Below, piece after piece: positions 7,522 to 35,180 of a stretch of DNA of 55,516 nt. Both the position numbers and the translations under genes were made by a program. The stretch is from Mycoplasma sp. CAG:611 (GTDB lineage: Bacteria; Bacillota_I; Bacilli_A; RF39; UBA660): contig HF999800.1 in NCBI GenBank assembly GCA_000434175.1, positions 60,947 to 116,462 on the forward strand, given 5' to 3'. The notes below the pieces were generated by a model. It made no database searches and had not been told where the DNA came from. It saw nothing but the letters and a program-made list of their open reading frames with translations. Within the stretch, counting starts at the first letter, position 1, and the number at the start of each line of letters is the position of its first letter.

Positions 7522-8337
7522 TCATTTTTCTTTTTCATATAAAACTAAATTATTAGCAATATCAACAAATATATCAATACTTATTGCTTCTGCTCTTACA
7601 TTTAAATCAAAATTATATTTTTTTAAAACTTTTTCTATAACAACTAAATTATATTCTTTTAAATTGTTTCTAATATTTTTTCTTTTAAATTTAAAGCTAT
7701 CTCTAACAAGTTTAAAAAATAACTTTTCATCATAAACTTCTAACATTTTATCTTTCTTTTTAAAAGATACTACAACACTATCAACATTAGGGCTAGGTAA
7801 AAAACAATTTCTTTTTACAATAAACTCTTTTTTTATATCATAATAATAATTCAAATAAACAGATAATGAACTATATTCTTTTGTTCCCGCCTTAGCACTT
7901 AATCTATCTCCAACTTCTTTTTGAACCATAAAAACTAAAATATCAGGGTTTATATTACTAGATATTATCTTTTCAATAATGGGAGTAGTTATATAATATG
8001 GTAAATTAGCAACAACATACAATTTATCATATTTAAAAGACTTTATATCAGAATTTACATCTCTTTTTAAAAAATCTCCAAAAATAACATTATAATTATT
8101 AAAAGCTTTTAAATTATCTTTTAAATAAGGAATAACTTCTTCATCTATCTCATAACATAAAACCTTATCATAATAATTACATAACTGTTTTGTTAATCTT
8201 CCATCTCCACATCCTATTTCAATAACTAAAGAATTTGTTTTATCTTTTATTACATTAGCTATTTTATTAGTAATATTACCATCAATTAAAAAGTTTTGAC
8301 CATATTTTTTCTTAAATTTAAAATTTTTTATTTCCAT
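7522..8337 (-). CDS. rsmA: 16S rRNA (adenine1518/1519-N6)-dimethyltransferase
   Basis: KKYGQNFL start, SAM-binding motif EIGCGDG, NLPYYITTPI motif. Confidence 0.95.
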   Translation of the reverse strand: MEIKNFKFKKKYGQNFLIDGNITNKIANVIKDKTNSLVIEIGCGDGRLTKQLCNYYDKVLCYEIDEEVIPYLKDNLKAFNNYNVIFGDFLKRDVNSDIKSFKYDKLYVVANLPYYITTPIIEKIISSNINPDILVFMVQKEVGDRLSAKAGTKEYSSLSVYLNYYYDIKKEFIVKRNCFLPSPNVDSVVVSFKKKDKMLEVYDEKLFFKLVRDSFKFKRKNIRNNLKEYNLVVIEKVLKKYNFDLNVRAEAISIDIFVDIANNLVLYEKEK

Positions 8338-8390: not shown

Positions 8391-8942
8391 TTATAATTCT
8401 TCTTCCGTTTCTTCTTTAGACAATTCTAAATTTTGTTTAACTACTTCTTTTTCATCAAATATTTCTTCAGGTAAACTGTTTTTCATATCATATATTTGAT
8501 ATTTATTTTTCTTTTTTTCTTTACCTAAAACTGATGCTACAATTAAGAAAAAGTTACTTACTATTAAACAATATAACATAGATACAACAAAAGTTAAATT
8601 ATCTGAAAAGAAAGATGGATTGTAATTTATACCATATTTATGATATAAAACCATATTTGTATCTAATTTAGCTCTTACTCCAAATACAATTATTGCAGCA
8701 AATACAATACAACTTACAAAATTTAAAAGTAAATTGTCATTAATTTTACTATCTCTTCTAATAAGATTAACTATATATATAACTAATAATAAAATAAATG
8801 GTATAAAAACACTAATAGCATCAAGTAAACTTTTTTCTAATCTACTGTAAGTAGATAAAATACCAAATAAAATAGCCATTGTTGCTAAAATAAAAAGTAT
8901 TATTTTTAAAAATTCAAACATTTTTGATAAAACTTTATTCAT
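8391..8942 (-). CDS. hypothetical polytopic membrane protein with acidic C-terminal tail (last gene of SipW locus)
   Basis: Four predicted TM helices and an EE-rich tail. Its start overlaps the stop of the upstream gene at 8942. I recognise no family. Confidence 0.5.
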   Translation of the reverse strand: MNKVLSKMFEFLKIILFILATMAILFGILSTYSRLEKSLLDAISVFIPFILLLVIYIVNLIRRDSKINDNLLLNFVSCIVFAAIIVFGVRAKLDTNMVLYHKYGINYNPSFFSDNLTFVVSMLYCLIVSNFFLIVASVLGKEKKKNKYQIYDMKNSLPEEIFDEKEVVKQNLELSKEETEEEL

Positions 8943-9646
8943 TATCTATTACCCCCAAACTCATTTACATACCAAATGGAAGATTCTTCAATAACACTAG
9001 TTAATCTACTATAATTGGATAAATTTGTAAAGAATACATCAGAAGTATAATTATATATTGTATTTCTAACAGTATCTGTCGTCCAAAAATAAGAACTATT
9101 AAATAAAAGTCTATTTTCTAACCTTAATGCATCAGTACTAAGATCATCCCTTGCTCTTATTAAATTATTTTTAACAGCATCATAACCATTAACTTTTATA
9201 TTGTATTTATTAATTGCATCTGTTACTTCTGCTTCTAATAAAAGCGTACAATAAGAATTAATTTTAGAACTAAAAGTTTTATTATAATCATAAATGTCTG
9301 CTGGTTTAAATGAATTTTTTTCTAAATTATAAAAATCACTTGTTTTAATTTCATTTAAACATTGTTCTGTTTTAGATTTATAAGTTAATGCTGTCATTCT
9401 TCTATTTATATCTTTAATATTATCTACATCAACCTTATTAATATTATTTTCTATTTCTTTTACATTTTCTTTAAAAGATATATAAGTTTTACTTTCATTA
9501 AGGTTATAATTATATGATTTATTTACTTCAATATAGTGATAAACATTACTTAAAAGTAGATGTGCACTTAAAGCTAAAGTTAAAATCATAAGACAATTGG
9601 CAAATAATTCAAATATTTCTTTAAAATAATCTTTCATTTTTATCAT
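8942..9646 (-). CDS. hypothetical membrane-anchored protein (SipW locus)
   Basis: One N-terminal TM (CLMILTLALSAHLLL) followed by a ~190-aa soluble domain. I recognise no family. Confidence 0.5.
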   Translation of the reverse strand: MIKMKDYFKEIFELFANCLMILTLALSAHLLLSNVYHYIEVNKSYNYNLNESKTYISFKENVKEIENNINKVDVDNIKDINRRMTALTYKSKTEQCLNEIKTSDFYNLEKNSFKPADIYDYNKTFSSKINSYCTLLLEAEVTDAINKYNIKVNGYDAVKNNLIRARDDLSTDALRLENRLLFNSSYFWTTDTVRNTIYNYTSDVFFTNLSNYSRLTSVIEESSIWYVNEFGGNR

Positions 9647-9656
9647 CCCTTTTTAT

Positions 9657-10250
9657 TTATTTTTTTATTACAACTTCATAATTATAATATCCACTTGCAT
9701 TAGAATTGCCCCAAATCAATATTTCATAATTATCTACAGTTTTTAATCCAATTGAAGTAGTTACTAATACATTGTTTTTTAAGTTACTTAATTTTCCTTC
9801 TTTTATTTTAACATCATTTTTAAATACAGAATAATTTAAATTTTTCCTATTAACCATTTTTTCATTATTATTAAGCTTTATATCATTTATCGTAAGTTTA
9901 TAAGTTATTTCATATTCATTATCATTTCTAACATAAAATTTATATTTATTTGAATTATCATAACTATTATATACTTTTATATTTTCAATATAGTTAGTAA
10001 AGTTTTCATTTTGATATATTCCAAGTAAATCTCCTTGATGTATTGTGTTATCATTTATTTTATTATAATGTTTTGATAACAAATACCCAATAAACATACC
10101 CAATAATACTGTTAATAATATAATTAAAATAAATAAAATATATTTCTTGTTTTTATCTTTTTCTTTATATTCATTTAATTCATTTGGACTAATTTCTTCT
10201 GTATATAAATAATTATCATTAAAGAATTTCTGTGTCACTTGAATCACCAC
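9657..10250 (-). CDS. membrane-anchored beta-rich protein, distant paralogue of the three secreted proteins upstream
   Basis: Cytoplasmic N-terminus, one TM (ILFILIILLTVLLGMFIGYLL), and a C-terminal YEILIWG motif resembling YRLRMWV / YTLRAWV / YKFRMWV in the secreted paralogues. It overlaps the sipW 3' end by 32 nt. Confidence 0.5.
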   Translation of the reverse strand: MVIQVTQKFFNDNYLYTEEISPNELNEYKEKDKNKKYILFILIILLTVLLGMFIGYLLSKHYNKINDNTIHQGDLLGIYQNENFTNYIENIKVYNSYDNSNKYKFYVRNDNEYEITYKLTINDIKLNNNEKMVNRKNLNYSVFKNDVKIKEGKLSNLKNNVLVTTSIGLKTVDNYEILIWGNSNASGYYNYEVVIKK

Positions 10251-10896
10251 TTTCTAATACTTCAATAGAATCATCTACATTATTTAAATATTTATCTAAT
10301 TCTTCTTTTGCTTTTAATTTTTTCTTACTAAGTTTAGGTTGTTTCTTTTTATTAAATGCTATTTTTAATACTTTCAATAAATCATATACTACTATACCAA
10401 CACATGGTATTACTATAACTACTATCCATCCTACTTTACTTAATATAAATTCTTGAATAAAACCAACCTTAGGAATAACAAATATAACTTTACCAATAAC
10501 ATCATCTTGACTTACATAATGCGTATCAGCAGTATTATTGTTATCACCTTTTGTTGAATAAAAATATTTACCATTTTCTATTTTTATATCAATTATTCTA
10601 TGCGTGATAGTTATTTGCCCATTTCCACGGTTAGAATAAAAAGTAATTATATCGCCAAGTTCATATATATTATCTTTATTTTTATAATCAACAACGACAT
10701 CTCCCGCCATTATTGTTTTTTCCATACTTGTAGTTAGTATTGTATACATATTAAACTTAATTTCATCCAGTCTATTTTGTTTTGCATATATTTTAATTGT
10801 TACAATATAAAAAACCAATAATATAATTACGCCCATTAATATCCAAAATAAAATATTCGAAATTATTTTAGATAATTTTTTTAAAAAGTTTTTCAT
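10219..10896 (-). CDS. sipW: signal peptidase I, SipW (ER/archaeal) type
   Basis: TTSMEKTIMAGDVVV (catalytic Ser), GDIITF, THRIIDI (catalytic His instead of Lys), and TKGDNNNTAD...VIGKV. The same motif order occurs in B. subtilis SipW. A C-terminal TM is present. Confidence 0.85.
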   Translation of the reverse strand: MKNFLKKLSKIISNILFWILMGVIILLVFYIVTIKIYAKQNRLDEIKFNMYTILTTSMEKTIMAGDVVVDYKNKDNIYELGDIITFYSNRGNGQITITHRIIDIKIENGKYFYSTKGDNNNTADTHYVSQDDVIGKVIFVIPKVGFIQEFILSKVGWIVVIVIPCVGIVVYDLLKVLKIAFNKKKQPKLSKKKLKAKEELDKYLNNVDDSIEVLESGDSSDTEIL

Positions 10897-10926
10897 AATA
10901 TTTACCCTTTTCTATTCTTTTATATT

Positions 10927-11622
10927 TTAATATGCATCTACATATAAATAACATTTAAAAGTTCTTGATACATTATCAACATTATAATCTTCATCAACCC
11001 ACATTCTAAATTTATATGTTGATAAAGTTTTCCCTGAAACTGTTTTCTTGTATAATTGTTTTGAACTTTTATTTCTTGTTGTTAAGTTACTATTTGGAAG
11101 TTTATTAAATGAATTAACTTCATTTTTATTTACTAATACTGCTTTCCCATCTTCTTCAAGATAAACTCTTACGTATTTTTCATCTAAAGTATTTTCATTT
11201 TCAATTGGTGTTAGCGTTATTTCATAAGTAATATTACTAATTTTAGCAGATTCAATTCTTGTTGATATTGTAAATTCAAAATATTCTCCAATACCAGATA
11301 ATTTCTTTCCAACTTCATCAGTCATAGGATATGTATTTATCATACTTATCGCATTAGTTCTTTCACTGTATGAAAACGCTACTGCTCCAGCATTTATAAT
11401 ATTATTATTACTACCTTGTTTTATTTTAAACAAAGAAAAGCCTGCAAAAGATACAAATAATGTTAATAAAACAAAAATAAGTACAAATAATAATAGCCTT
11501 TTTTGTTCCTGTTCTTCTTTTTGTAATATTTCATCTGCTACTTTATCTGCTACTTTCAATTCTTCGTTATTTAAACTATCTTTAATAATTGTAATATTCT
11601 CTTCATCGTCTAAATGTTCCAT
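10927..11622 (-). CDS. TasA/camelysin-like protein with long acidic N-terminal extension (paralogue 3)
   Basis: TM/signal ending VSFAGFSLF, then AGAVAFSYSERTNAISMINTYPMTD and C-terminal YKFRMWV. The start is moved to MEHLDD (11622, AAAGGA RBS) because the ORF-track start is a TTG. Confidence 0.5.
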   Translation of the reverse strand: MEHLDDEENITIIKDSLNNEELKVADKVADEILQKEEQEQKRLLLFVLIFVLLTLFVSFAGFSLFKIKQGSNNNIINAGAVAFSYSERTNAISMINTYPMTDEVGKKLSGIGEYFEFTISTRIESAKISNITYEITLTPIENENTLDEKYVRVYLEEDGKAVLVNKNEVNSFNKLPNSNLTTRNKSSKQLYKKTVSGKTLSTYKFRMWVDEDYNVDNVSRTFKCYLYVDAY

Positions 11623-11713
11623 ATAACAACATCCTTTCAAAAGACTTACTATCTTACTATAAATAGAATACCATAAATTATAAAAAATTAAAACCTAAAA
11701 GTGAAAAAAAATG

Positions 11714-11741
11714 AAAAAAACAGTAATTATTTACTGTTTTT
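11714..11741 (-). terminator. intrinsic terminator/attenuator after the second TasA-like gene
   Basis: ACAGTAA-ttat-TTACTGT hairpin (11720-11737) flanked by A7 and T4 on the plus strand. This gives a T7 run on the transcribed minus strand. Confidence 0.65.
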
Positions 11742-11776
11742 AGATTAAACATTTTTTTGTATTGTTTTTAGTATTA

Positions 11777-12406
11777 TTAAGCTGCTGCTTTAATTTCTAC
11801 ACCAAAACTAAATGTTTCAGCAGTTGAAGTATTAGTTTGAGTTTTACCATCTTCAGAAGTTGTGTTAGCACCTTGTGGTAATTTATAAGTATCAGCAACC
11901 CATGCTCTTAAAGTATAAGTAGCTCCTGTTTTTGTTGATGTTAATGTATCTGTGTCTAATAAATAACCAGTAGTTATAAGAGTTCCTTTATTAGTAGCAA
12001 GACTAGCAACTGTTACACCTTCATTAGCTTTACCAATAATATAAGTATCTCCTTTTTTAAGGTTAAATTTAATATGTTCAGCAGTTAAAGTTGCACCTGG
12101 AGTAATATTAGCTAATGCTAAATCATAATTAACGCTTGTAGAACCAGTAATTGAACCAGTAACTGTAAATACTAAATCGTGTCCTGTAACAGCAGATCCA
12201 GTAGCATCTGTTGAAGGATAAGCATTAGTTAAAGTTATTTTACTAGTTTCTTCATAACTTACTGAAATTGTACCAGTAGTGATTTGATTAACTTTAGAAC
12301 CTTGGGCACTGAATGTATACATTGCATAACTTACACCAATTACAACAACTAATAAAAGGATAACACCTAAAACACTAAAAAGTAATGTCTTTTTATTTTC
12401 AGCCAT
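11777..12406 (-). CDS. TasA/camelysin-like secreted protein (paralogue 2, putative fibre subunit)
   Basis: Signal peptide ending GVSYAMYTF, then ITTGTISVSYEETSKITLTNAYPSTD and YTLRAWV. T/S/G/A-rich composition. Strong RBS. Confidence 0.55.
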   Translation of the reverse strand: MAENKKTLLFSVLGVILLLVVVIGVSYAMYTFSAQGSKVNQITTGTISVSYEETSKITLTNAYPSTDATGSAVTGHDLVFTVTGSITGSTSVNYDLALANITPGATLTAEHIKFNLKKGDTYIIGKANEGVTVASLATNKGTLITTGYLLDTDTLTSTKTGATYTLRAWVADTYKLPQGANTTSEDGKTQTNTSTAETFSFGVEIKAAA

Positions 12407-12427
12407 TTTTTTATTTCTCCTTTCTTA

Positions 12428-13096
12428 TTATTTACCTAAAGCATTAACTTGAGAATTTACATTTACAGTTAATCTATAAGCATATTTTGTATTTGAGTTT
12501 AATGTACCAGGTGCTCCATCTGTTGTAAATTGAGCATCAGTATTAACCCACATTCTTAATCTGTAGTTTTCAGCTGTTCCAGTATGTGTAGTAGCGGCAT
12601 CATTTACTTCATATAACTTATATGCTGTAGTTTTATTTAAGTTTGATTTGTTACTATCAACAATAAGTGTATTAAGTTTTGTAGGTTCAACTACTGCAGT
12701 TTCAGTTTCACCGTTAACTTTAGTTAAATAAACTGTAACATATTCTGTAGGTAATTTTGTTTCACCTTCACCCATAGATCCTTCAGAAATACTAATTTCA
12801 TAAGGAACTTTTAGTGCTGCATCAGTTTTTCTTGATACAGTAAAATCAAAATAATGATTAGCAGTTTTATCAACTTTAGCAGTTGCGTCTGCTACTGGGT
12901 CTGCATTAGTAATACTAATTCCAGCAGTTTCTTCACTAAAACTCATAGTAATAGTACCTGTTGTAATTGAATTATTAGCAGATGGTGTATTTGCAAAACT
13001 AAATGCAGCAAATGAAACACCTACTACTGCTACTACTAAAATAGCAACTCCTAATACAGATAACAATACTTTTTTAGAATTATTTTCTTCCATCAT
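12428..13096 (-). CDS. TasA/camelysin-like secreted protein (paralogue 1, putative fibre subunit)
   Basis: Signal peptide ending GVSFAAFSF (compare TasA ..GGTWA/AFND), then ITTGTITMSFSEETAGISITNADPVAD (compare TasA FASGTLDLS...SVNLSNLKPGD) and YRLRMWV. GGAGG RBS. Confidence 0.55.
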   Translation of the reverse strand: MMEENNSKKVLLSVLGVAILVVAVVGVSFAAFSFANTPSANNSITTGTITMSFSEETAGISITNADPVADATAKVDKTANHYFDFTVSRKTDAALKVPYEISISEGSMGEGETKLPTEYVTVYLTKVNGETETAVVEPTKLNTLIVDSNKSNLNKTTAYKLYEVNDAATTHTGTAENYRLRMWVNTDAQFTTDGAPGTLNSNTKYAYRLTVNVNSQVNALGK

Positions 13097-13122
13097 TTTG
13101 TTTAACCTCCTTTACAATAATA

Positions 13123-13151
13123 ATATTATCTTATTTTGAAATTAAACGCAA
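13123..13151 (-). promoter_or_regulatory. putative sigmaA promoter of the SipW/TasA-like operon
   Basis: On the minus strand: TTGCGT, a 17-nt spacer, then TAATAT, about 25 nt upstream of the GGAGG RBS. Confidence 0.35.
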
Positions 13152-13179: not shown

Positions 13180-13947
13180 TTACATAATATTAAATACTTT
13201 ACAAACATTATCGGTTGTTTTTTTTGCAACTTCACTAATAGTTATATTTTTTATATTACTTAGACATTCTGCAATTAATTTTATATTTTTAGGTTCGTTT
13301 ACACTGCCTCTTATTGGAGATAAAAAAGGACTATCTGTTTCAAGAACTATATTTTCTAATGGTATATCTTTAATAACGTCCTTTAAATTACTATTTTTAA
13401 ATGTTAATACTCCTCCAATTCCTAACTTATATCCTAATTTTATATATTCATTTGCTACTTCTTTACTTTCACTAAAACAATGTATTACACCAAAAGATTT
13501 ATAATTTTTAAGTATATCAATTGTATCTTTAACAGCATCCCTTGAATGAATAACAATTGGTAAGTTATATTTATTTGCTAGTTGTATTTGTTTTATAAAT
13601 AATTCTTTTTGTTTTTCCTTATTCTTTTTAGTATAATGATAATCTAATCCTATTTCTCCAATAGCTACTAATTTATCTTTATTTTCTATTATTTGTTTTT
13701 CTAAAAGAATTAAGTCTTCAAGAGTATAGCTATCAGTACAATCAGGATGATATCCCAAGGTTAAATAAATATTATTATAATTTTTACATGCTTTTATATT
13801 TAATAAATTATCTTCTTTAGAATTACCACCTAAAATTAAATATAAAACATCTTCCTTTTTAGCATCATTAACTATTTTTTCTAAATCACTATCTTTTTCT
13901 ATATGAAAATGTGTATCTATTAAAATCATTTTTATTCCTTCTTTCAA
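13180..13947 (-). CDS. tatD: TatD family metal-dependent DNase/hydrolase
   Basis: IDTHFH start, EIGLDYH, and HSRDA motifs. It lies downstream of metG as yabD does in Bacillus. Confidence 0.9.
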   Translation of the reverse strand: MKEGIKMILIDTHFHIEKDSDLEKIVNDAKKEDVLYLILGGNSKEDNLLNIKACKNYNNIYLTLGYHPDCTDSYTLEDLILLEKQIIENKDKLVAIGEIGLDYHYTKKNKEKQKELFIKQIQLANKYNLPIVIHSRDAVKDTIDILKNYKSFGVIHCFSESKEVANEYIKLGYKLGIGGVLTFKNSNLKDVIKDIPLENIVLETDSPFLSPIRGSVNEPKNIKLIAECLSNIKNITISEVAKKTTDNVCKVFNIM

Positions 13948-14056
13948 TTCTTATTATTTAATAATCTCATGAATTAATTATATACTATATTTTCTTCTAT
14001 TCCAATTATAATAAAATTCAACAATTTTAGCAAATAAAAAAGGCCCTTATTAACCC

Positions 14057-14197
14057 TTAAACAACTTTTTTTAATTTAATACCAAATCCTAATAGAACAA
14101 GTAAATATCCTAAATCTAAAATATTTCTTGTTTGAATAATTGATGTTATTAAACCAATTATAAATAATACTAAAACTAACACTGCCATTTTTCTCAT
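14057..14197 (-). CDS. unannotated 46-aa small membrane protein
   Basis: Reverse complement reads MRKMAVLVLVLFIIGLITSIIQTRNILDLGYLLVLLGFGIKLKKVV-stop. An AAGGAGAATAATT RBS precedes it. It is below the ORF-track size cutoff. Confidence 0.45.
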   Translation of the reverse strand: MRKMAVLVLVLFIIGLITSIIQTRNILDLGYLLVLLGFGIKLKKVV

Positions 14198-14269
14198 AAT
14201 TATTCTCCTTTTATAAGTGTTTTTTAGTACTGCAAATTTAATATATCTTAAATAAATTTTAATTTCAAG

Positions 14270-14309
14270 AAAAAAACAACTGTAAATATTTAATTTACAC
14301 TTGTTTTTA
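14270..14309 (-). terminator. intrinsic terminator after metG
   Basis: 12-bp stem ACAAGTGTAAAT/ATTTACAGTTGT with one mismatch, followed on the minus strand by T7. Confidence 0.5.
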
Positions 14310-14311
14310 CA

Positions 14312-15841
14312 TTATTTTTCTATTTCTATTCTTTTAAATAGTACTTCAATTTGACCTAACTTATGATTATTTTCTAAAGCACCAAATTCATTTAATGTAT
14401 CATATGTATTTAAATTAGTATTTAATTGTTTAAATATTTTTTCAGTTGTCGTAGGCATAAATGGTGTTAAAAGTACTGATGAAATTCTTATTGATTCAAG
14501 TAAATTATATAAAACAGTTTGTAATCTTTCTAGTTTTTCTTCTTTAGCAAGTACCCAAGGAGTTGTATCGTCTATATATTTATTACATTCTCTTAAAAAG
14601 TTAAATATTTCTTCTAAAGCATCACTTATATATAATTTTTCCATATTTTTATCTACAACTGATTTTAAATTAGAAGCTTTATTTATAAGTTCTGTATCTA
14701 TTTCTTCATTTACTTTAGAATTAGAAATAACACCATCAAAATATTTATTAGTCATAGCTATTGTTCGATTAAGTAAATTACCTAATGTATTAGCTAAATC
14801 AGCATTTGTTCGAGCAATTAATGCTTCCTCACTAAAGTTACCATCACTTCCAAATGAAACTTCTCTTAAAGCATAATATCTAACTGCATCTACTCCATAT
14901 TTATCAATATATTCTCTTGGATCTTTATAATTTCCTAAAGATTTACTTATTTTTCCACCATCTATTTTTAACCAACCATGTCCGAATACTTGTTTTGGAA
15001 GTGGTAAATCAAGTGCCATCAATAAAGCAGGCCAAATAATTGCATGAAATCTTACTATTTCTTTTCCTACTAAATGTAAATCTGCTGGCCAATATTTTTT
15101 AAATAAACTATCATCATCACTTAAATAACCAAGAGCAGTTATATAATTAGTTAAAGCATCTATCCAAACATAAATAACATGTTTTGGATTAAAAGAAACT
15201 GGTATTCCCCAACTAAAAGTTGTTCTTGATACACATAAATCTTCAAGTCCTGGTTTTAAAAAGTTATTAATCATTTCATTTTTTCTTGATTCTGGTTTTA
15301 TAAACTCAGGATTAGTTTTATAAAGTTCTTCAATTCTTTTTTGATATTTAGATAATCTAAAAAAATAACTTTCTTCTTCTACTAAAGAAACTTCTCTTCC
15401 ACAATCAGGGCACTTTCCATCAACAAGTTGTGTTTCAGTCCAAAATGATTCACATGGCGTACAGTAAAGTCCTTTATATTTATCTAAATATATATCCCCT
15501 TGTTCGTATAATTTATCAAATATTTTTTGAACTGCTTTTTCATGATATTCATCAGTTGTTCTAATAAACTTATCATAACTTATCCCTAAACTTTTCCATA
15601 AATCTTTAGCATTTTCTACAATTTCATCCACATATTCTTTAGGAGTTACACCTTTTTCCTTAGCTTTATTTTCTATTTTTTGACCGTGTTCATCTGTTCC
15701 AGTTAAAAAGAATACATCTTTTTCCTTTAATCTTTGATACCTTGCAATTGAATCTGCAATAATTGTTGTATAACAATGTCCAATATGAAAATTAGCACTT
15801 GGATAATATATTGGTGTTGTTATATAATATTTTTCTTTCAT
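14312..15841 (-). CDS. metG: methionine--tRNA ligase (short form, no C-terminal tRNA-binding domain)
   Basis: HIGH motif (NFHIGH), KISKS (KMSKS-type motif), and a CPDCG zinc knuckle. The start is moved to MKEKYYITTP (15841, GGAAGG RBS). The 20-codon extension in the ORF track lies in the T-box leader. Confidence 0.95.
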   Translation of the reverse strand: MKEKYYITTPIYYPSANFHIGHCYTTIIADSIARYQRLKEKDVFFLTGTDEHGQKIENKAKEKGVTPKEYVDEIVENAKDLWKSLGISYDKFIRTTDEYHEKAVQKIFDKLYEQGDIYLDKYKGLYCTPCESFWTETQLVDGKCPDCGREVSLVEEESYFFRLSKYQKRIEELYKTNPEFIKPESRKNEMINNFLKPGLEDLCVSRTTFSWGIPVSFNPKHVIYVWIDALTNYITALGYLSDDDSLFKKYWPADLHLVGKEIVRFHAIIWPALLMALDLPLPKQVFGHGWLKIDGGKISKSLGNYKDPREYIDKYGVDAVRYYALREVSFGSDGNFSEEALIARTNADLANTLGNLLNRTIAMTNKYFDGVISNSKVNEEIDTELINKASNLKSVVDKNMEKLYISDALEEIFNFLRECNKYIDDTTPWVLAKEEKLERLQTVLYNLLESIRISSVLLTPFMPTTTEKIFKQLNTNLNTYDTLNEFGALENNHKLGQIEVLFKRIEIEK

Positions 15842-15859
15842 AAATACCTTCCTTTCAAA

Positions 15860-16078
15860 AAAAATATTACAAACATAGAAACGAATTTTTCGTGGTACCA
15901 TTCTACTTTGTAATATTAATTACCTTTTTCTCTTAACGCGAGTAACGAATTTATTTACATATCAATAAATCAGTTTTGGAAACCATATTCAATTATATTT
16001 ATTACTTATTTTCACCAAACATAAGCTCTCTTTAAATTAAATAATAATCTACTCTTTTCCTCACAACATTTAATTAAT
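15860..16078 (-). promoter_or_regulatory. T-box leader (riboswitch), probable Met (AUG) specifier
   Basis: On the minus strand, in order: AGAGAGC...GGTGAAA, GAATATGG (AUG at 15984-15986), a GCGTTA F-box-like element, and AATGGTACCACG matching the T-box core GGTGGTACCGCG. A short hairpin and T8 then precede the metG RBS. Confidence 0.7.
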
Positions 16079-25989: not shown

Positions 25990-26007
25990 ATAACCTCCAA
26001 TAAAAAA

Positions 26008-26079
26008 GTGCACACATATAGGGATTATTAAGGCTGCTACTTTCCAGTCCTGACCTGGTTCTAATATATATGTTGCACG
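26008..26079 (-). ncRNA. ffs: signal recognition particle RNA, short 4.5S-like form
   Basis: The minus strand reads GTGCAACATATA...ACCAGGTCAGGACTGGAAAGTAGCAGCC...TATATGTGTGCAC. This matches the domain IV consensus CAGGUCAGGUCCGGAAGGAAGCAGCC with a GGAA tetraloop. The 5' and 3' ends pair, T6 follows, and a promoter precedes it. Confidence 0.8.
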
Positions 26080-26085
26080 ATTTAA

Positions 26086-26114
26086 ATATTATATTAAATC
26101 AAATTAAAAGTCAA
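26086..26114 (-). promoter_or_regulatory. sigmaA promoter of ffs
   Basis: On the minus strand: TTGACT, then TAATAT at a 17-nt spacing (or TATAAT at a 15-nt spacing). It ends about 7 nt before the SRP RNA 5' end. Confidence 0.55.
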
Positions 26115-26346: not shown

Positions 26347-28863
26347 TTATTCTTCTATGATTTCTTCTTCTGGTTCTTCTTTTTCTGTTACTGTTACATT
26401 AGTTACTATTTGATTATCTTTTAATGATATTAATCTTACACCTTGTGTATTACGTTTTAATGTGGATATTTTATTTACATCTAACCTTATAACTATACCA
26501 CTATTAGTTGTGATTATTATATCTTCATCACCAACAACCGATTTAAATGCAACGATTAAACCATTTTTATCGGTAATATTAAGAGCTTTTACTCCTTTTC
26601 CTCCACGATGAGTTAATCTATATTCATCAGTTTCAGTCTTTTTACCATATCCTTTTTCTGTTATAACTAATATTAATTTTGAACTATCTGCTACTTCTGC
26701 TCCAATTACATATGAATTATCAAGTTCAATGCCTTTTACACCACTTGCTGTTCTACCCATCAATCTAACTTCTTTTTCATTAAATCTAACCATTCTACCA
26801 TTATTAGCAGCAATTATTATTTCATTTGTACCATCAGTTAAATTAACATTTATTAATTCATCATCTTCTTTTAATGTGATAGCTATTTTACCATTATTTC
26901 TTATAGACTCAAATTCTTTTATATTAGTACGTTTTACTAAACCATATTTTGTTACAAATACTAAATTCTTTTCATCATTAACTTCTTTTGGATCTATTGA
27001 AATAATTGATGTTATTTTTTCTTCTTTTTCTATTGGAATTAAATTAATTATTGGTAACCCTTTTGATTGTCTACTTCCAAGTGGAATTTCATATCCTCTT
27101 ACTCTATAAACTTTTCCATAATTACTAAAGAACAATATATCATCATGAGTTGATGATGTAATTAACTTATTAACATTATCTTCTTCATTTGTTGTCATTC
27201 CTTTTATTCCTACACCACCACGATTTTGTGTTCTATATGTATTTACGGCCAAACGTTTGATATATCCTTTTTCTGTTAAAGATATCATTATGTTTTCAAC
27301 AGGAATTAACGATTCATCTTCAATATAATCAATTGCAGTCATATCAATTGATGTTCTTCTTTCATCTGCATATTTATCTTTTATCTCAAGCATTTCAGTT
27401 TTTATTATATTATCTATCTTTTCACGACTAGCTAAAATTGCTTTTAATTCTTCGATTAATTTTAAAGTTTCAGCTAATTCTTGTTCTATTTTATCTCTTT
27501 CTAAACCCGTTAAACGACGAAGTTTTAATTCTAGTATAGCATCAACTTGAATATCACTAAAACCAAATCTTTTAATTAATTCTTCTTTTGCAATAACATC
27601 TGTTTCTGATTCACGGATTATTTTAATTACATCATCTAAATGGTCTAACGCTATTTTATAGCCTTCTAAAATATGTACTCTTGCTTCTGCTTTATCAAGA
27701 TCAAATTTCGTTCTTCTTATTATAACTATTCTTTGATGATCTATATATTTTTCAATTATATCTTTAAGTGGTAATGTTCTTGGTGTTCCATCATCAATTA
27801 CTAAAAAATTAATTCCATAACTGATTTGAAAATTAGTATGTTTATATAAATTATTAAGTACAACTTGTGGGTTAGCATCTTTTTTTAAAGTAATTGTTAT
27901 TTTTACCCCATCTTTTAAATCAGTGTGATAATCAGATATTCCATCAATTATCTTATCCCTAACAAGTTCTCCTACTTTGTTTTTTAATTCCAAAGTATTA
28001 ACGCCATATGGTACTTCCGTTATAACAATATTATTGTGATTTCCATGTTCTTCAATAGTTGCTTTACTTCTAATTGTTATAGACCCTCTACCAGTATCAT
28101 AAGCCTTTTTAATACCAGAGTTTCCTAAAATAATACCCCCTGTTGGAAAATCAGGTCCTTTAACGTATTGCATAAGACCTAAAGTATCTATTTCAGGATT
28201 ATCAATATAAGCAACACAACCATCAATTACTTCACCTAAATTATGTGGTGGGATATTTGTTGCCATACCTACTGCGATTCCCATTGATCCATTTACTAAA
28301 ACATTTGGAAACCTTGATGGAAGTACTTTTGGCTCTTTACTTGTAACGTCAAAGTTATCATCCATATCAACTGTATCTTTTTTGATATCTCTTAAAAGTT
28401 CTAGAGATATTTTAGATAATCTTGCTTCAGTATAACGATATGCTGCTGCACCATCGCCTTCAATATTACCAAAATTACCATGCCCATCAACCAACATATA
28501 TCTTTGGTTAAAATCTTGCGCAAGTCTTACCATTGCTTCATATATTGAACTATCACCATGTGGATGATAATGCCCCATAACATAACCTACAGTAGTAGCA
28601 GATTTTTTATGCGGTTTATCTGGAGTATTTCCTTCTTCAAACATACTCCATAAAATTCTTCGGTGAACAGGTTTTAAACCATCTCTTAAATCGGGTATTG
28701 CACGTGAAGCTATAACACTCATTGAATAATCTAAAAATGATGTTTTTACCTCATTTACAATATCATTTATATTATGACTATCTCGTTCATGAAATTTTCC
28801 ACCATAATCATCTTTTTCTTTATTATTTATTTCATTTTCAGTTGTTTTTTCTTCATTTTCCAT
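26347..28863 (-). CDS. gyrA: DNA gyrase subunit A
   Basis: AIPDLRDGLKPVHRR, the HPHGDSSIYEAMVRLAQ QRDR region, catalytic YRYTEARL, and C-terminal beta-pinwheel repeats. Confidence 0.98.
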   Translation of the reverse strand: MENEEKTTENEINNKEKDDYGGKFHERDSHNINDIVNEVKTSFLDYSMSVIASRAIPDLRDGLKPVHRRILWSMFEEGNTPDKPHKKSATTVGYVMGHYHPHGDSSIYEAMVRLAQDFNQRYMLVDGHGNFGNIEGDGAAAYRYTEARLSKISLELLRDIKKDTVDMDDNFDVTSKEPKVLPSRFPNVLVNGSMGIAVGMATNIPPHNLGEVIDGCVAYIDNPEIDTLGLMQYVKGPDFPTGGIILGNSGIKKAYDTGRGSITIRSKATIEEHGNHNNIVITEVPYGVNTLELKNKVGELVRDKIIDGISDYHTDLKDGVKITITLKKDANPQVVLNNLYKHTNFQISYGINFLVIDDGTPRTLPLKDIIEKYIDHQRIVIIRRTKFDLDKAEARVHILEGYKIALDHLDDVIKIIRESETDVIAKEELIKRFGFSDIQVDAILELKLRRLTGLERDKIEQELAETLKLIEELKAILASREKIDNIIKTEMLEIKDKYADERRTSIDMTAIDYIEDESLIPVENIMISLTEKGYIKRLAVNTYRTQNRGGVGIKGMTTNEEDNVNKLITSSTHDDILFFSNYGKVYRVRGYEIPLGSRQSKGLPIINLIPIEKEEKITSIISIDPKEVNDEKNLVFVTKYGLVKRTNIKEFESIRNNGKIAITLKEDDELINVNLTDGTNEIIIAANNGRMVRFNEKEVRLMGRTASGVKGIELDNSYVIGAEVADSSKLILVITEKGYGKKTETDEYRLTHRGGKGVKALNITDKNGLIVAFKSVVGDEDIIITTNSGIVIRLDVNKISTLKRNTQGVRLISLKDNQIVTNVTVTEKEEPEEEIIEE

Positions 28864-28874
28864 AAATTAACCTC

Positions 28875-30800
28875 CTAAATATCAAGATTTTCAACAAACT
28901 TAGCGTTTTCTTCGATAAATAATCGCCTTGGTTCTACTTCATCACCCATAAGTTTCTCGAATATTGAATCTGCTGCCATGCAATCCTCTACAGTTATTTT
29001 TCTTAATACTCTTTTTTCGATATCCATTGTTGTTTCATTTAATTCTTCAGCATCCATTTCCCCAAGACCTTTCATACGGGCAATTTCAGCACGATTTCTT
29101 ACATTTTCTGGAAGTGACGCTAAATAATCGTCCTTTTCTTTTTCATCAAGAACATATTTTCTTGTTTTGCCATGCATAATTCTAAAAAGTGGTGGTTGAG
29201 CTGCATATACATGCCCCTTTTCAACAATTGGTCTAAAGAACCTATAAAATAAAGTTAATAAAAGTACTCTAATATGACTTCCATCAACATCGGCATCGGT
29301 CATGATAATAATTTTATCATATCTTAACTTAGATAAATCAAATTCATCACCAATTCCTGTACCAAATGCTGTTATTATTGTTCTTATTTCTTCATTTCCT
29401 AATGCTTTATCAAGTCTTGCTTTTTCAACATTAAGTATTTTCCCTCTTAAAGGAAGAATAGCTTGAGTCATCGAATCTCTACCTTTTTTAGCAGAACCTC
29501 CTGCTGAATCCCCTTCGACAATAAATATTTCAGATATACTTGGATCTTTACTTTTACAATCTGATAATTTACCAAAGAAATTAGATGTTCCTAAATCACT
29601 TTTTCTTGTTATTTCTCTTGCTTTTCTTGCAGCATTTCTAGCTCTATTAGCAAGTAGTGCTTTATTTATAATAATTTTAGCTTCATCAGGATTTTCCATT
29701 AAAAATCTTTCAAATCCTTTTGAAAAAACACTATCAGCAAGTTTTCTTACTTCACTATTTCCTAAACGACCTTTAGTTTGCCCTTCAAACTGAGGATTTG
29801 GATGTTTACAAGAAATAATCATTGTTAATCCTTCTTTAACATCATCTCCTGTTAAAGATTCATCTTTTTCTTTTAACATATTAGTTTTTCTTGCATAAGA
29901 ATTTATTATTCTTGTTAATGCTCTTCTAACACCCTCTTCATGTGTTCCACCATCATGTGTATTAATATTATTAACAAAAGAATAAATATTTTCATTATAA
30001 CTGTTATTATATTGCATAGCTACTTCAAATTGAACATCATCTTCTTCGCCTTCAAGATGAATTATATTTTCATGTAATACTGTTTTATCTTTATTAATAA
30101 ATCTTACATATTCACTAATTCCACCTTCGTAACAGAAAGTTTCACCAGTTGTGTCTTCTAAATCACGATCATCTCTTAAATTAAGTGATAAACCTTTATT
30201 TAAAAATGCTAATTCACGAACACGAACTTTTAATGTTTCATAACTATATATGTCCGTATCAAATATCTCAGGATCTGGTTTAAATGTCACAGTTGTTCCC
30301 GTTCTATTTTCACTACATGTACCTATTACTTTTAAAGGTTCAACAGTATGTCCACCATTTTCAAATCTTATAAAGTGGACTTTACCATTTTTATAAACAG
30401 TTACTTCTAACCATTTTGACAAAGCATTAACAACACTGGCACCTACACCATGAAGTCCTCCAGATACTTTATATCCTCCTCCTCCGAATTTACCACCAGC
30501 ATGTAATACTGTATAAACAGTTTCTACTGTAGATATTTTTGTTTTAGGATGTATTTCTGTTGGTATTCCTCTACCATCATCTTTTACTGTAATTGAATTA
30601 TCTTTATTAATTACTATTTCAATATGTTTACAATAACCTGCTAAAGCTTCATCTATTGAGTTATCTACTATTTCCCATACAAGATGATGAAGTCCTTTTA
30701 CATCTGTTGTTCCTATATACATTCCAGGTCTTTTTCTTACTGCTTCAAGTCCTTCAAGAACTTGAATATCACTAGAATCATAATGTTTTTGTTGTTCCAT
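28875..30800 (-). CDS. gyrB: DNA gyrase subunit B
   Basis: [20 protein letters not shown] ATPase motifs, EGDSAGG Toprim, and [10 protein letters not shown]. The start is moved to MEQQKHY (30800), which has a GGAAGGAAG RBS. Confidence 0.97.
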
Positions 30801-31899
30801 AATTTTTCTTCCTTCCATAATTTGTTATATTTCCATCTTTTATTTTAAAAATACTTGCTTTTTCAACAATTTTATCACTTATATTTTTTATGTCTGTTGT
30901 TGTTATTATAAATTGAATATTTGATTTAATAAATTTAAGTAAATTATTTCTTTTTTCGATATCAAGTTCACTAAAAATATCATCTAAAAGAACAATTGGA
31001 TATGTTTTTTTTATTTCTTTGAAAATATTAATTTCAGCAAGTTTAAATGCTAAAATAGCTACCCTTTGTTGCCCTTGTGAACCATAATCTTTTAAATCCA
31101 TAGAATCAACATAAAAAGATAAATCATCTTTTTGAATACCAAAAAGAGTCATTTTCTTATCTACCTCATTATAATAATTATCTTTATAATAATTAATAAT
31201 TTCTTCTTTGTTATCAAAAGATATATTTTTATTATAATTTATTTTTAAATTACCTGTTTTCATTATTTTTTTATAAATAACTTCAATATTTGAATTGATA
31301 CATTCAATATACTTTTCTCTATAATTTCTTATAATTATAAGTCTATCAATTAATTTTTCTGTTATTATATCAAAATATGCTTTATCAATATTTAAATAAT
31401 TTTTTCTTAAATATTCATTTCTTATTTTAAGTAATTTATTATATTCATTTAATACTTTCATATAATTAGGAAATAATTGACATAATTCAATATTTAATAA
31501 ATTTCTTCTTACAAGTGGTGATTTTTTAATTATATCTAAATCATCAGGACTAAACATAATAACATTTAAATTAGTTAAATAATCACTAACTTTTTTTATT
31601 TCCTTTTTATTAATTTTCAATATTTTTTCTTGATTAGTTAAAATAACTTCCATTTCTTTTTGATTTTTTTCATATCTTAAATTACCTTTTATCAACGAAA
31701 AATCACTTGTTTTATTTATTAATTCACTTTCTTCAACAGATTTTGATGGTTTTGTAAGTGCAAGAACATATATACTTTCTAAGATACTAGTTTTTCCTTG
31801 AGCGTTGTTTCCAATAAAAATATTAATATTTTTATTTAATTCAGTTTCTAAATTTATTATTTTTTTAAAGTTTTTTATTTTAATTTTTTCAAGATACAT
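30778..31899 (-). CDS. recF: DNA replication and repair protein RecF
   Basis: [14 protein letters not shown] Walker A, GSQGQQR signature, and [10 protein letters not shown] Walker B. The 3' end overlaps gyrB by about 23 nt. Confidence 0.93.
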
Positions 31900-32025
31900 A
31901 AAATTTACTCATTTTTTTACCAAATTAACATCAACTCCCAAAACTAGTAGTCCTATACTTACATAACAATTATACCATAAAAAAGGCAAAAAAGGGCGTT
32001 TTTTTTTAAAAAATTACCCTTTTTA

Positions 32026-32466
32026 TTAATTTTTTCGTTGTTTTGTTATTGTTATTAACTTATTAACTCTTAATAGTTGAGTTTCTATGGACAAGATGGG
32101 CATATTAAACTCAGTTTTTTTATTATTTTTCCATTCTACTACTGTATTTTTTCCTTTTTTCTCATAATTTAAAATATTATTTGACCCTATCCAAACATTT
32201 TTTTCATTTTCAATTGCTGTTGTTGGAAAAAATATTAAATTATTAGTTTCTTCTACCATCACTGGTATTTTATAAACTGAACCTAAAATGCTTCTTGCAC
32301 CATTCATTCTGCCATTTAATGAACTTCCATAATAACTACAACTATTCTCAATTACTTGATATGGTGTTAAATCAACAATATATTCATCATTTAACTCAAG
32401 TATTTTACTTTTTCCTTTTTGATAAGGAATTATAGCTAAAGTATCGCTATTAATTTCATATTCCAT
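32026..32466 (-). CDS. ComK-family transcription factor-like protein (short, 146 aa)
   Basis: TLAIIPY...P.QVIENSCSYYGSSLNGRMNGA.....YKIPVMV....NLIFFPT.......WI parallels B. subtilis ComK (ATIAVLP...PLQIVDRSCRFFGSSYAGRKAGT...HKPPIMV...QIFLFPT...WI). Confidence 0.6.
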   Translation of the reverse strand: MEYEINSDTLAIIPYQKGKSKILELNDEYIVDLTPYQVIENSCSYYGSSLNGRMNGARSILGSVYKIPVMVEETNNLIFFPTTAIENEKNVWIGSNNILNYEKKGKNTVVEWKNNKKTEFNMPILSIETQLLRVNKLITITKQRKN

Positions 32467-32555
32467 AATATCCCCCTGTACTAAATAATAATATAAAAAA
32501 TATATTACACATAAAATGTAACATATTTTTCTGTCGTTTTTTGTCTTAATTTATT

Positions 32556-33674
32556 TTAATATGTTCTAATTGGTAAAATTAATCCAATTAAATCATTATT
32601 ACTACTTTCTCTTAATAAAATAGGTTTTATTTCTCCTACAAAACTAATAATAACATCTTCTGTTGATATTGTTCTTAAAGCATCCATCATATATTTACTA
32701 CTAAATGATATTTTAATATTATCACTACAATTAACTGCTAATTTTTCTTCTACTTTACCTATTTCAAGTGACATAGAAGTAATTTTTAACAAATTATTGT
32801 TAATTTCTAAAGTAATAATGTTATTATCCCTATCATTATTTAATATAGATGCTCTATCAACCATATTATAAAATTCTCTTTTGTTAATTCTTAAATCAAA
32901 TAATGTTTCTTCTGGAATTAAATTAACAGTATTTGGATAACTTCCATTAATTAATCTTGATTGGAAAATAATATTATTAAATTTAAAAATTATTTTATTA
33001 CTGAATATATATATATTTAATATTTCTTCATCTTCATCAAAAAATAATTTTAATAATTCAGTTAAATTTCTACTTGGAATTATAATATTAACATCTTTTG
33101 TTAATACTTTATCCATTTTATATTTCTTAAGAGATAATCTATAAGAATCTGTTGCACTACATTCAAGCATTTCTTTATTTGTTTTTAAATTTAATCCTGT
33201 TAAAACTATTCTTGATTCATCAGTACTTGAAGCATAATTAGTTTGATTTATAATATTTTTAAAATCTTTAATTGATAAACTAATAAAATCATCATTTAAA
33301 CTTAAATCTATTGGGGGATATTCTCTAGCATCAATACCATTTAAATTAAATTCACTATTTTCTGTATAGATAAGTACTTTATAATCATCAACTATTTCCA
33401 TATTAATAAATTCTGAATCTAATTTTCTAATAATATCAATTATATATTTACCTTTTATTACTATACTTCCTGTTTTTAAAATTTCTAAATCTTCACTTTT
33501 TTCTATTTCAGTTTGAATTGTAATATCATTATCTGATGCGGTTAAAATAAGTTTTTCTTTTGTTAAATTAAACTTAATACCTGATAATATAGGTACAATA
33601 TTCTTTGATGATAATGCTTTTGATACATTATTTAATGCTTCGGATAAAACGTTTTTTCTAATTTTTAATTTCAT
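32556..33674 (-). CDS. dnaN: DNA polymerase III subunit beta (sliding clamp)
   Basis: 372 aa with the MKL.I....L......V...V......PIL.GI start, the three-domain clamp length, a C-terminal LPIR motif, and a position after dnaA. Confidence 0.95.
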   Translation of the reverse strand: MKLKIRKNVLSEALNNVSKALSSKNIVPILSGIKFNLTKEKLILTASDNDITIQTEIEKSEDLEILKTGSIVIKGKYIIDIIRKLDSEFINMEIVDDYKVLIYTENSEFNLNGIDAREYPPIDLSLNDDFISLSIKDFKNIINQTNYASSTDESRIVLTGLNLKTNKEMLECSATDSYRLSLKKYKMDKVLTKDVNIIIPSRNLTELLKLFFDEDEEILNIYIFSNKIIFKFNNIIFQSRLINGSYPNTVNLIPEETLFDLRINKREFYNMVDRASILNNDRDNNIITLEINNNLLKITSMSLEIGKVEEKLAVNCSDNIKISFSSKYMMDALRTISTEDVIISFVGEIKPILLRESSNNDLIGLILPIRTY

Positions 33675-33806
33675 AAAAATTCCTTCTTTCTTTTATTTAT
33701 TTATTTTTTTTATTATAGCAGTTAATAACTGTTAATAACTTATTAAAACCTTATATATCAGTACTTTTAGAAGATTTTTTTTAACAATTATTAACTGATA
33801 TTAACA
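33675..33806. other. oriC: oriC, dnaA-dnaN intergenic box cluster
   Basis: Three exact TTATTAAC 8-mers: 33721-33728 and 33731-33738 on the minus strand as a tandem GTTAATAACT repeat, and 33788-33795 on the plus strand. ATATTAACA is at 33798-33806. No canonical TTATCCACA is present. Confidence 0.55.
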
Positions 33807-35180
33807 TTATTTTAATTCTTGTTCTATATGAATAATTGCTTCTTTTAATTCCATGTTACTTTTTAATGAAGTTTCTATTTTATTACAAGAATGCATTACA
33901 GTAGCGTGATTTTTTCCACCAAATTCTATTCCTATTCTTTCAAAAGATTCATTAGTTAATTTACGACATAAATACATTGCTACTTGTCTTGGAATGGCTA
34001 TATTTGGTGGCCTTTTATTAGATTTTATATCTTCATAAGATATTTTATAAAAATTTGCTACACTTTTTTGTATTCTTCTTATATTATTTTGATCTGTACC
34101 ACTTGTTTTTTTAGTAAATTCTTTTAATGCTTCCATTGCAAATTCTAAAGTTGGATTATTAACACCCATAATTACTGAATAAGCAATAAGTCTTGTAATT
34201 GAACCTTCAAGTTGCCTTACATCGTTTCCTACATTTGAAGCAATAAAATTAATAACATCATCATTTATTTTTAACTTTTCTCCATTTAATTTTTTTCTTA
34301 TAATAGCTACTTTTAATTCAAATTCAGGTGGTGCAATATCAACTTGTAAACCCCAACAAAATCTAGTACGAAGTCTATCTTCAAGAAATTTTAAATCATC
34401 TGGTGATCTATCGGATGATACAATTATTTGCTTAGAATCGTTATGCAAATTATTAAATGTATGGAAAAACTCTTGTTGTGATGCTGTTGCTCCCCCAAGA
34501 AATTGAATATCATCTATTATTAATACATCAATATCACGATATTTACTCTTAAAAAATTCCATATAATCTAAATTATTATTGTTAATATTATTTTTTCTTG
34601 ATAATCCCATAAAATCTTCAAGAAATTGATCACAGGTAACATATAAGACACGTTTTTTGTGTTTTTCTTCAATATAATTACCAATTGCATGCATAAGATG
34701 AGTTTTACCAAGTCCACTGTTACCATATATAAATAAAGGATTATACATCTTACCAGGATTTTCTGCTACTGCAAGAGCTGCAGCTTGTGCAAATTTATTT
34801 GATTCGCCTACAACAAATGTATCAAAAGTATAATTTTTATTTAAATTAGAATTAATTGCTTTTTTAGGTTTATATTTATCAACATCATCTTTAGTTTCAG
34901 TTTTTTCTTTTTCTTTATCAAGTATTTCATTAAGATTTTCCTTTAAAATAAAGATAATATCATTTATTTTAAAACTAGAATTGTTATTAAAATTATCTAT
35001 TATTATTTCTTTATAATTTTGTTCAATATGCGTTTTGTAAAGTAAATATGGTACGCATAATCTCAATTTATCATCTTGAATATCAATAAATTCAATATTA
35101 CTAAACCATGTATTAAAAGGAAGAGGATCTATAATATTTTTAATACTTAATAATGTTTTATTCCATATACTATCATTCAT
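33807..35180 (-). CDS. dnaA: chromosomal replication initiator protein DnaA
   Basis: AAA+ motifs GNSGLGKTHL and LIIDDIQFL, sensor motifs, and a domain IV HTH (PRQVAMYL...GGKNHATVMH). Confidence 0.97.
   Translation of the reverse strand: MNDSIWNKTLLSIKNIIDPLPFNTWFSNIEFIDIQDDKLRLCVPYLLYKTHIEQNYKEIIIDNFNNNSSFKINDIIFILKENLNEILDKEKEKTETKDDVDKYKPKKAINSNLNKNYTFDTFVVGESNKFAQAAALAVAENPGKMYNPLFIYGNSGLGKTHLMHAIGNYIEEKHKKRVLYVTCDQFLEDFMGLSRKNNINNNNLDYMEFFKSKYRDIDVLIIDDIQFLGGATASQQEFFHTFNNLHNDSKQIIVSSDRSPDDLKFLEDRLRTRFCWGLQVDIAPPEFELKVAIIRKKLNGEKLKINDDVINFIASNVGNDVRQLEGSITRLIAYSVIMGVNNPTLEFAMEALKEFTKKTSGTDQNNIRRIQKSVANFYKISYEDIKSNKRPPNIAIPRQVAMYLCRKLTNESFERIGIEFGGKNHATVMHSCNKIETSLKSNMELKEAIIHIEQELK

Follow-up and report, generated by a model that had tools for sequence, protein, structure and literature searches.

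What do the seven genes lying between tatD and rsmA in the uncultured gut bacterium Mycoplasma sp. CAG:611 make at the cell surface? They were encountered in a 55,516-nucleotide stretch of contig HF999800.1 (hereafter the window), where they form seven co-directional open reading frames (ORFs), all on the minus strand, designated here A, B, C, sipW, E, F and G (Table 1). An initial annotation, made from the letters alone, had placed the seven genes there and described them as a SipW-centred locus for three TasA/camelysin-like paralogues, a candidate surface-fibre system. The layout is as described, and it is reasonable to see in it a system for making surface fibres; the TasA label fares less well, as discussed below. 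Our preferred interpretation, to which we assign a probability of roughly 55%, is a SipW-dependent, sortase-independent donor-strand surface fibre, in which one paralogue would act as the membrane anchor and two new proteins as accessories. Public records give a name to SipW alone, and enter A, B, C, F and G as "unknown" or "hypothetical". F is identical to CDA23568.1 ("Mycoplasma sp. CAG:611"), whose neighbours are CDA23567 and CDA23570-23572; NCBI lists B as "unknown" (CDA23572.1) and SipW as "signal peptidase SipW ... S26B" (CDA23570.1).

The locus recurs widely. When genomes were scanned at one per species, 178 relatives were found; the best 80 matches, representing 79 distinct loci from 79 species-level genomes, were kept and their ORFs annotated with iterated hidden Markov models (HMMs). 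Wherever the contig reaches across the region, the order is tatD-[2 to 7 paralogues]-sipW-E-F-G-rsmA-yabG-veg; 73 loci possess sipW and 70 possess F and G, with identity within the family dropping to 36%, and E went undetected by HMM annotation in about ten. The arrangement is present in about 70 species-level genomes, a recurrence which places it far beyond chance. All carriers are low-GC lineages recorded as uncultured Bacilli, "Tenericutes," "Mycoplasma sp.," Ca. Onthousia, and Clostridium sp. CAG:451, together with a few bins labelled Muribaculaceae or Bacteroidaceae.

Some loci depart from the window in the composition of the array. Forty-two (e.g., L003:2646-3233 and L011:6580-7167) carry a yabE-like gene between tatD and the first paralogue, which is absent in the window species. 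Its product is a membrane-anchored protein of 195 residues with the motif "...FMGTLTAYGPDC," which we take to be YabE- or 3D-domain-like. At L011:8802-12997, on the circular metagenome-assembled genome (MAG) OZ006970.1, approximately 4.5 kb of opposite-strand genes split the paralogue array, with three paralogues before the insertion as judged from ORF size (two of them confirmed by HMM) and three after it, followed by sipW. Downstream of veg in L060 and L077, proteins of 549 and 468 residues match the family HMM and may be multi-domain or tandem relatives.

The central gene encodes an ER/archaeal, SipW-type signal peptidase, as originally proposed. It scores 100.6 bits against TIGR02228, the model for archaeal-type signal peptidase I (cut-off 51.85), and the SM, THR and KGDNN motifs, which are present in the window, are conserved across 73 orthologues. 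Against the Bacillus SipW equivalog NF046067 it reaches 100.5 bits, which is below the cut-off of 190 and hence not an orthologue-level match. In all 73 loci that reach sipW the gene is embedded in the paralogue array. In the TasA superfamily, which takes in TasA, BsaA, AbpA, AbpX, Tafi, threads and cannulae, a Sec leader with a signal-peptidase-I site goes together with linkage to an archaeal-type signal peptidase I; both features are found here, the putative site having the form S-[FY]-A.

A, B and C are paralogous, BLASTP giving 36% identity for A and B (E 6e-13) and 32% for A and C (E 1e-18). Their leaders end in VSFA-AFSF, VSYA-MYTF and VSFA-GFSL, respectively, and are of signal-peptidase-I type; the C-terminal motif Y(R/T/K)(L/F)R(M/A)WV is likewise present. 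The block ITTGTIxxS...TNAxPxxD, which had been presented as common to all three, is clear in A and B and degenerate in C. The family founded by A comprises more than 1252 clusters, none of which carries a Pfam domain or a name. Cleavage of A after A30 would give the predicted mature N-terminus AFSFANTPSANNSITTGTITMSFSEETAGISITNADPVADATAK. The AlphaFold2 (AF2) model of A has a mean predicted local distance difference test score (pLDDT) of 74, with a confident β-sandwich at residues 58-214 and values below 50 for residues 20-57.

The paralogues fall into positional classes. C has a 45-residue acidic cytoplasmic extension and a membrane segment, and retains the VSFA-GF motif; the extension, noted earlier for this one protein, is real and proves to be a conserved trait of sipW-adjacent paralogues (73 loci), in which the membrane segment starts at a median residue of 21.5, as against approximately 9 in distal paralogues. 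The S/T-x-A motif occurs in approximately 93% of distal paralogues, 60% of those adjacent to sipW and 6% of E orthologues, and the content of Thr, Ser, Gly and Ala follows the same order, at approximately 40%, 30% and 21%. One subclade, the window included (C residues ~30-38), carries the motif [VI]AD.VA.[ED]IL in the cytoplasmic extension of the sipW-adjacent paralogue (loci L002, L004, L007, L014, L019, L021, L040, L043, L046, L053, L064, L067, L071-L074 and L078). In these C-type paralogues a conserved cytoplasmic motif stands beside a cleavable-looking leader.

Other routes to the surface were considered and rejected. Each leader is made up of an n-region and an h-region, with S-x-A coming after the hydrophobic segment, and the G/A-F-T-L-x-E signature of type IV pilins is absent; matches of family members to pilin N-terminal families are weak and non-significant. 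The sequences of A, B, C and E contain neither LPXTG nor a cysteine lipobox, so that sortase substrates and lipoproteins were also set aside.

E is a fourth, distant member of the family, one that had been missed by the initial annotation. Comparison by hhalign of 62 E orthologues with 259 A/B/C-type proteins, membrane segments having been trimmed, gave a probability of 97.6% (E 4.6e-12) over 119 columns that include the P..D...Y.F.V and Y.LR.W blocks; the locus thus holds four family members. E possesses an N-terminal membrane segment with no S-x-A site, the motif being found in only 4 of the 62 orthologues. E thus appears built to stay in the membrane, and is the likeliest candidate for the membrane anchor.

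One indirect indication of a fibre comes from the region immediately downstream of the leader. Across 263 paralogues the most conserved stretch of the mature protein is residues 41-60, at 2.7-3.0 bits per column, with N42 found in 260/260 and I44, T46, G47 and E55 conserved at 83-96%. This same stretch is where the AF2 monomer is least confident (pLDDT 37-47), whereas the core at residues 101-210 shows 1.3-2.1 bits of conservation and a pLDDT of 82-96. Such an anticorrelation between conservation and confidence is the pattern expected of a strand which docks into a neighbouring subunit. The leader and residues 31-68 align by hhalign in register with TasA 28-64; in TasA, residues 28-38 form the donor strand, 39-47 a linker and 48-61 a self-complementing strand (PMC9674648).

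Variation within the species is concentrated in the first two paralogues. Among ten strains plus the window, A has a ratio of nonsynonymous to synonymous polymorphism (pN/pS) of 0.61 and B one of 0.96, while the same strains give 0.04 for tatD, 0.03 for sipW, 0.11 for C, 0.17 for E and 0.18 for G. The exact allele of A occurs on 170 contigs and that of B on 96, as compared to at least 1000 for SipW. The variation of A and B fits exposed major subunits. In these strains (L080-L089) and the window, synonymous divergence (pS) rises at the G/rsmA boundary (~8340), from 0.011-0.033 for tatD through G to 0.09-0.16 for rsmA, yabG, veg and whiA. Recombination may have left a boundary at this step, or the locus may have undergone a recent sweep; the step is possibly in part an artefact of having chosen strains with identical F.

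The AF2 model of F (pLDDT 94.6, predicted template modelling score 0.88) begins with a membrane helix at the N-terminus and continues as a five-helix bundle, and two cysteines, C96 and C133, are near-invariant in an alignment built from diverse representatives (a first homologue set was only 98-100% identical and was unusable). The cysteines and the positive-inside N-terminus suggest that the domain is extracytoplasmic and disulfide-bonded. F is restricted to the clade: a set of 1.84 billion protein clusters contains just 66 representatives of it, all but a few of them 200-240 residues long, and the few shorter ones are apparently fragments. An index of public assemblies has the F sequence in 1927 blocks. 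Searches of F against Pfam and PDB sequences gave no match, and the best Foldseek match in the PDB, the vinculin tail, is non-significant (E 0.033). G has approximately four membrane segments and an acidic C-terminal tail, follows F in all 70 loci, and has no PDB match. It was tried as a member of DUF996 and rejected, scoring 20 bits against a cut-off of 31.3, with only 5/29 orthologues matching. It had been remarked that the downstream partners differ from TapA, and this is borne out. F and G match no known family. Since both co-occur strictly with sipW and E, a role in assembly or anchoring is the simplest guess.

Taken together, these observations can be arranged into a scheme. A and B, an upstream unit in which both genes have strong ribosome-binding sites and a likely terminator comes last, would be exported by the Sec pathway, and SipW would cut their leaders after the S-[FY]-A that closes the hydrophobic segment, as the motif and the linkage of the genes suggest. 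The freed N-terminal segment, containing N42, I44, T46, G47 and E55, would then enter the β-sandwich of the next subunit as a β-strand, producing a polymer of which A and B are presumably the exposed, fast-evolving parts. C, with its cytoplasmic extension, may be a minor or initiating subunit. E, homologous to the subunits, devoid of the cleavage motif and predicted to carry a β-sandwich on an uncleavable anchor, would tie the fibre to the membrane, and F and G may be lineage-specific assembly or anchoring factors.

Several results weigh against this interpretation. The locus is a real, strongly conserved and unannotated one; at the sequence level, membership of its proteins in the TasA/camelysin family is not supported. 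Pfam searches with A, B and C gave no hit, and the TasA/camelysin family PF12389 matches only 5/58 family members, with a best E of 0.057; the NCBIfam TasA model NF046066, which has a cut-off of 450 bits, gives 13.9 and covers no more than residues 7-71. By hhalign the family aligns with B. subtilis TasA (the sequence identical to PDB 8AUR) at 55% probability, and with a 46-sequence TasA alignment at 34%; both alignments are confined to the leader and the first ~35 mature residues, the latter spanning 60 N-terminal columns. Removal of the leaders preserves the register and reduces the probability to 1% (P 0.047). A profile search of PDB sequences returned no TasA, only chance matches to Nup98 (E 0.08) and an archaeal pilin (E 3). 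Comparison of the A model with the PDB by Foldseek gave nothing at E <= 1e-3, the best value being 2e-3, and no TasA-superfamily chain occurs among the 50 matches listed, whose template modelling (TM) scores are 0.35 or less; the matches listed are generic jelly-rolls, namely Eph ligand-binding domains, CBM32, APC10 and Cry domain III. The consensus promoter scan found 53 sites as compared to 51 in shuffled sequence and is uninformative in DNA this AT-rich. Finally, cleavage, secretion and polymerisation are all inferred, in an organism that is uncultured. The BsaA/TasA superfamily is, however, highly divergent, only 632/2172 of its members matching the InterPro family (PMC11580942), so that a distant relationship to TasA may still exist.

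The alternative that survives best, although we consider it unlikely, is that these are surface or secreted proteins which do not polymerise, such as a variable coat, adhesins or antigens, either released by SipW or held by their leaders, with no fibre formed at all. SipW would then lie there as their processor or as a general signal peptidase. The failure to demonstrate TasA homology or a fold match agrees with this view, and the high pN/pS of A and B would fit any exposed antigen. The genomes moreover look small (one circular MAG is of 1.5 Mb) and might encode a single signal peptidase; if SipW is the only signal peptidase I of the genome, the argument from a dedicated peptidase weakens. A monomeric coat protein would nevertheless hardly explain a conserved segment just after the cleavage site that is modelled with such low confidence in the monomer, nor the fixation of E, F and G beside sipW over large evolutionary distances. 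SipW-type peptidases of Bacillus and C. perfringens, furthermore, serve polymer subunits (PMC9674648, PMC7395162).

A spore-associated function, in which the proteins would belong to a coat, crust or appendage layer and be expressed in sporulation, is compatible with a fibre and is rated as improbable. It had been raised because the locus sits among spoVT, yabG and veg, near which yabP also lies. TasA itself has a spore-associated history (PMC9674648), its original description being that of a spore protein, CotN. These neighbours belong, however, to the conserved origin-proximal gene order of Firmicutes, dnaA ... metG-tatD-[locus]-rsmA-yabG-veg ... tilS-ftsH, rather than to a sporulation operon, and for that reason they are not evidence of a spore function. 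A vegetative envelope would be the better setting for E, F and G as membrane-anchored proteins, and inspection by eye of the 83 nt upstream of A showed no sporulation-sigma signature, a weak point since no dedicated scan was run.

Least probable of all are secreted ligand- or carbohydrate-binding modules, with paralogues differing in specificity for nutrient capture or host binding: the Foldseek matches that hint at them (Eph ligand-binding domains, CBM32, CBM8 and Cry domain III, E 2e-3 to 2e-2) are all non-significant at TM 0.2-0.3, conservation peaks at the N-terminal strand rather than at a surface pocket, and the linked genes encode a peptidase and membrane proteins, not transporters or glycosidases.

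Beyond the donor-strand fibre itself, we tentatively propose a broader picture, which we hold with less than even confidence. The locus may specify a previously unrecognised strand-exchange pilus or fibre that is common to the lineage of uncultured low-GC gut Bacilli labelled "Tenericutes", "Mycoplasma sp. CAG" or Ca. Onthousia, with subunits from an unannotated β-sandwich family, rooted in the membrane by E and assembled by the disulfide-containing F and the four-pass G. Its major subunits would be under diversifying selection in one very prevalent species of the human gut, implying an interaction with host immunity or with phages.

The carriers of the locus are uncultured bacteria, common inhabitants of human and animal guts, and their cell surface is almost uncharted. 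If the fibre exists, an entire order-level lineage would have it as its main predicted surface appendage, and it would extend SipW-linked donor-strand filaments to a family missed by current Pfam and NCBIfam models. The paralogue with an uncleavable leader would be a concrete candidate for the membrane tether, a question not yet settled for BsaA of C. perfringens, and the fast-evolving A and B would be natural candidates as targets of immunoglobulin A or phages and for strain typing. Should there be no fibre, the locus would still stand as a conserved module of the cell surface, probably expressed at a high level, in which F and G represent two new protein families.

Table 1. Positions, in window coordinates, of the seven genes, their flanks and candidate transcription signals.
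Feature	Position	Strand	Description
A	12428-13096	-	222 aa; first paralogue, candidate major secreted subunit; leader end VSFA-AF
B	11777-12406	-	209 aa; second paralogue, candidate major or co-major subunit; leader end VSYA-MY
C	10927-11640	-	237 aa from TTG, 231 aa from gene-caller ATG at 11622; sipW-adjacent paralogue
SipW	10219-10896	-	225 aa; ER/archaeal (S26B) signal peptidase I
E	9657-10250	-	197 aa; fourth, divergent paralogue, candidate membrane-anchored base subunit
F	8942-9646	-	234 aa; single-pass membrane protein, helical bundle
G	8391-8942	-	183 aa; small polytopic membrane protein
tatD (flank)	13180-13947
rsmA (flank)	7522-8337
Hairpin and U-run after B	11705-11741	-	11-bp stem, 4-nt loop, then T-run; likely intrinsic terminator
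Promoter-like site TTCACT-17-TATAAT	11677-11705	-	upstream of C, 10/12 match; weak candidate only

The locus appears to be divided into two transcription units. The G+C content of the window is approximately 20%, and that of the A and B stretch 29-32%. Strong Shine-Dalgarno sites, already noted for the first two paralogues, precede A (AAAGGAGG) and B (AAAGGAG). These two genes are in the same frame, such that natural read-through would yield A-stop-stop-ERRNKK-B. The hairpin after B (RNA fold -12.8 kcal/mol, z -4.1 vs shuffles) likely separates the A-B unit from C-sipW-E-F-G; it was missed by the consensus scan because its stem contains fewer than three G-C pairs. The genes of the second unit are tightly packed or overlapping, sipW and E sharing 32 nt and F and G a start-stop overlap of 1 nt. 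Upstream of A, the sequence TTGCGT-17-TAATAT was considered as a promoter and is not claimed as one, matching at only 7/12 positions.

The window represents the neighbourhood of the replication origin, with dnaA at 33807-35180 and the locus approximately 21 kb away. The gene order is dnaA, dnaN, gyrA, SRP (signal recognition particle) RNA, dnaX, recR, holB, ricT, pth, mfd, spoVT, T-box leader, metG, tatD, the locus, rsmA, yabG, veg, whiA, yabP, divIC, tilS and ftsH; of the origin-region genes only dnaA, dnaN and gyrA were confirmed with NCBIfam. These three (~26347-35600) lie on the minus strand, and the coding strand switches at ~35.2-35.6 kb. The bacterial small SRP RNA is located at 25995-26087 on the minus strand (RF00169, 59.3 bits), and a T-box leader lies upstream of metG at 15874-16073, also on the minus strand (Rfam RF00230, 95.5 bits). 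The mechanically derived metG ORF of 529 residues (14312-15901) extends into this leader; gene callers give 509 residues. Between metG and tatD, which are 364 nt apart, an ORF of 46 residues is called in 10/10 strains (window 14000-14300; L080:1439-1579).

Among characterised systems the tapA-sipW-tasA operon of B. subtilis, whose TasA fibres form by donor-strand exchange (PDB 8AUR, 5OF1), is a close point of reference. In both an ER/archaeal-type SipW is encoded within the locus, the subunits are β-rich proteins of ~20-26 kDa with a leader end of the x-A/A-F type, and the leader and first ~35 mature residues are in register with TasA 5-64. The proteins described here show no PF12389 match and no significant β-sandwich similarity to TasA. 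They also differ in number, with 2-7 subunit paralogues in place of one and no TapA; the candidate anchor is instead the membrane-embedded paralogue E, and the lineage-specific F and G are additional. What the two systems would again have in common is an accessory protein resembling the subunit family which could nucleate or anchor the fibre.

The sipW-bsaA-bsaB-bsaC locus of C. perfringens encodes BsaA polymers joined by an "exchange and lock" isopeptide (PMC11580942, PMC7395162). In sipW-bsaA-bsaB loci several paralogues are present and the polymer is reported to be anchored in the membrane rather than the wall (PMC11580942). The resemblance to the locus described here lies in a sipW operon with several paralogous subunits of ~23 kDa. 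In the present family the putative donor segment has an Asn without exception at position 42, and position 55 is a conserved acidic one. An N-E-K isopeptide of the BsaA type was considered and set aside: E55 is Glu in 218/263 paralogues and Asp in 20, K74 is found in 171/263, and position 121 is Lys in 215/263 and Thr in A of the window. No lysine is thus invariant, the triad is not general, and despite the suggestive numbering of N42, E55 and K74 the residues, placed in the TasA register, fall off the BsaA positions. Nor does the vicinity contain a von Willebrand factor A protein, a two-component system or a sortase, as BsaA loci do.

In general organisation the haloarchaeal Tafi loci are also comparable, since they encode a signal peptidase, a membrane anchor and an accessory protein alongside pilins of the major and minor kind (PMC12337348). 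The present locus is bacterial with Sec-type leaders, and lacks a DUF5305 accessory protein and a regulator; no sequence or fold match was detected to Tafi, AbpA or AbpX, and the five-helix bundle F and the four-pass G are without a described counterpart there. What it shares with Tafi and with TasA-superfamily loci such as AbpA/AbpX is the plan of major and minor paralogous pilins, an archaeal-type signal peptidase I, an anchor and accessory membrane proteins (PMC12337348, PMC9245690, 10.64898/2026.01.04.697558) and a number of pilin paralogues that varies from one species to another.

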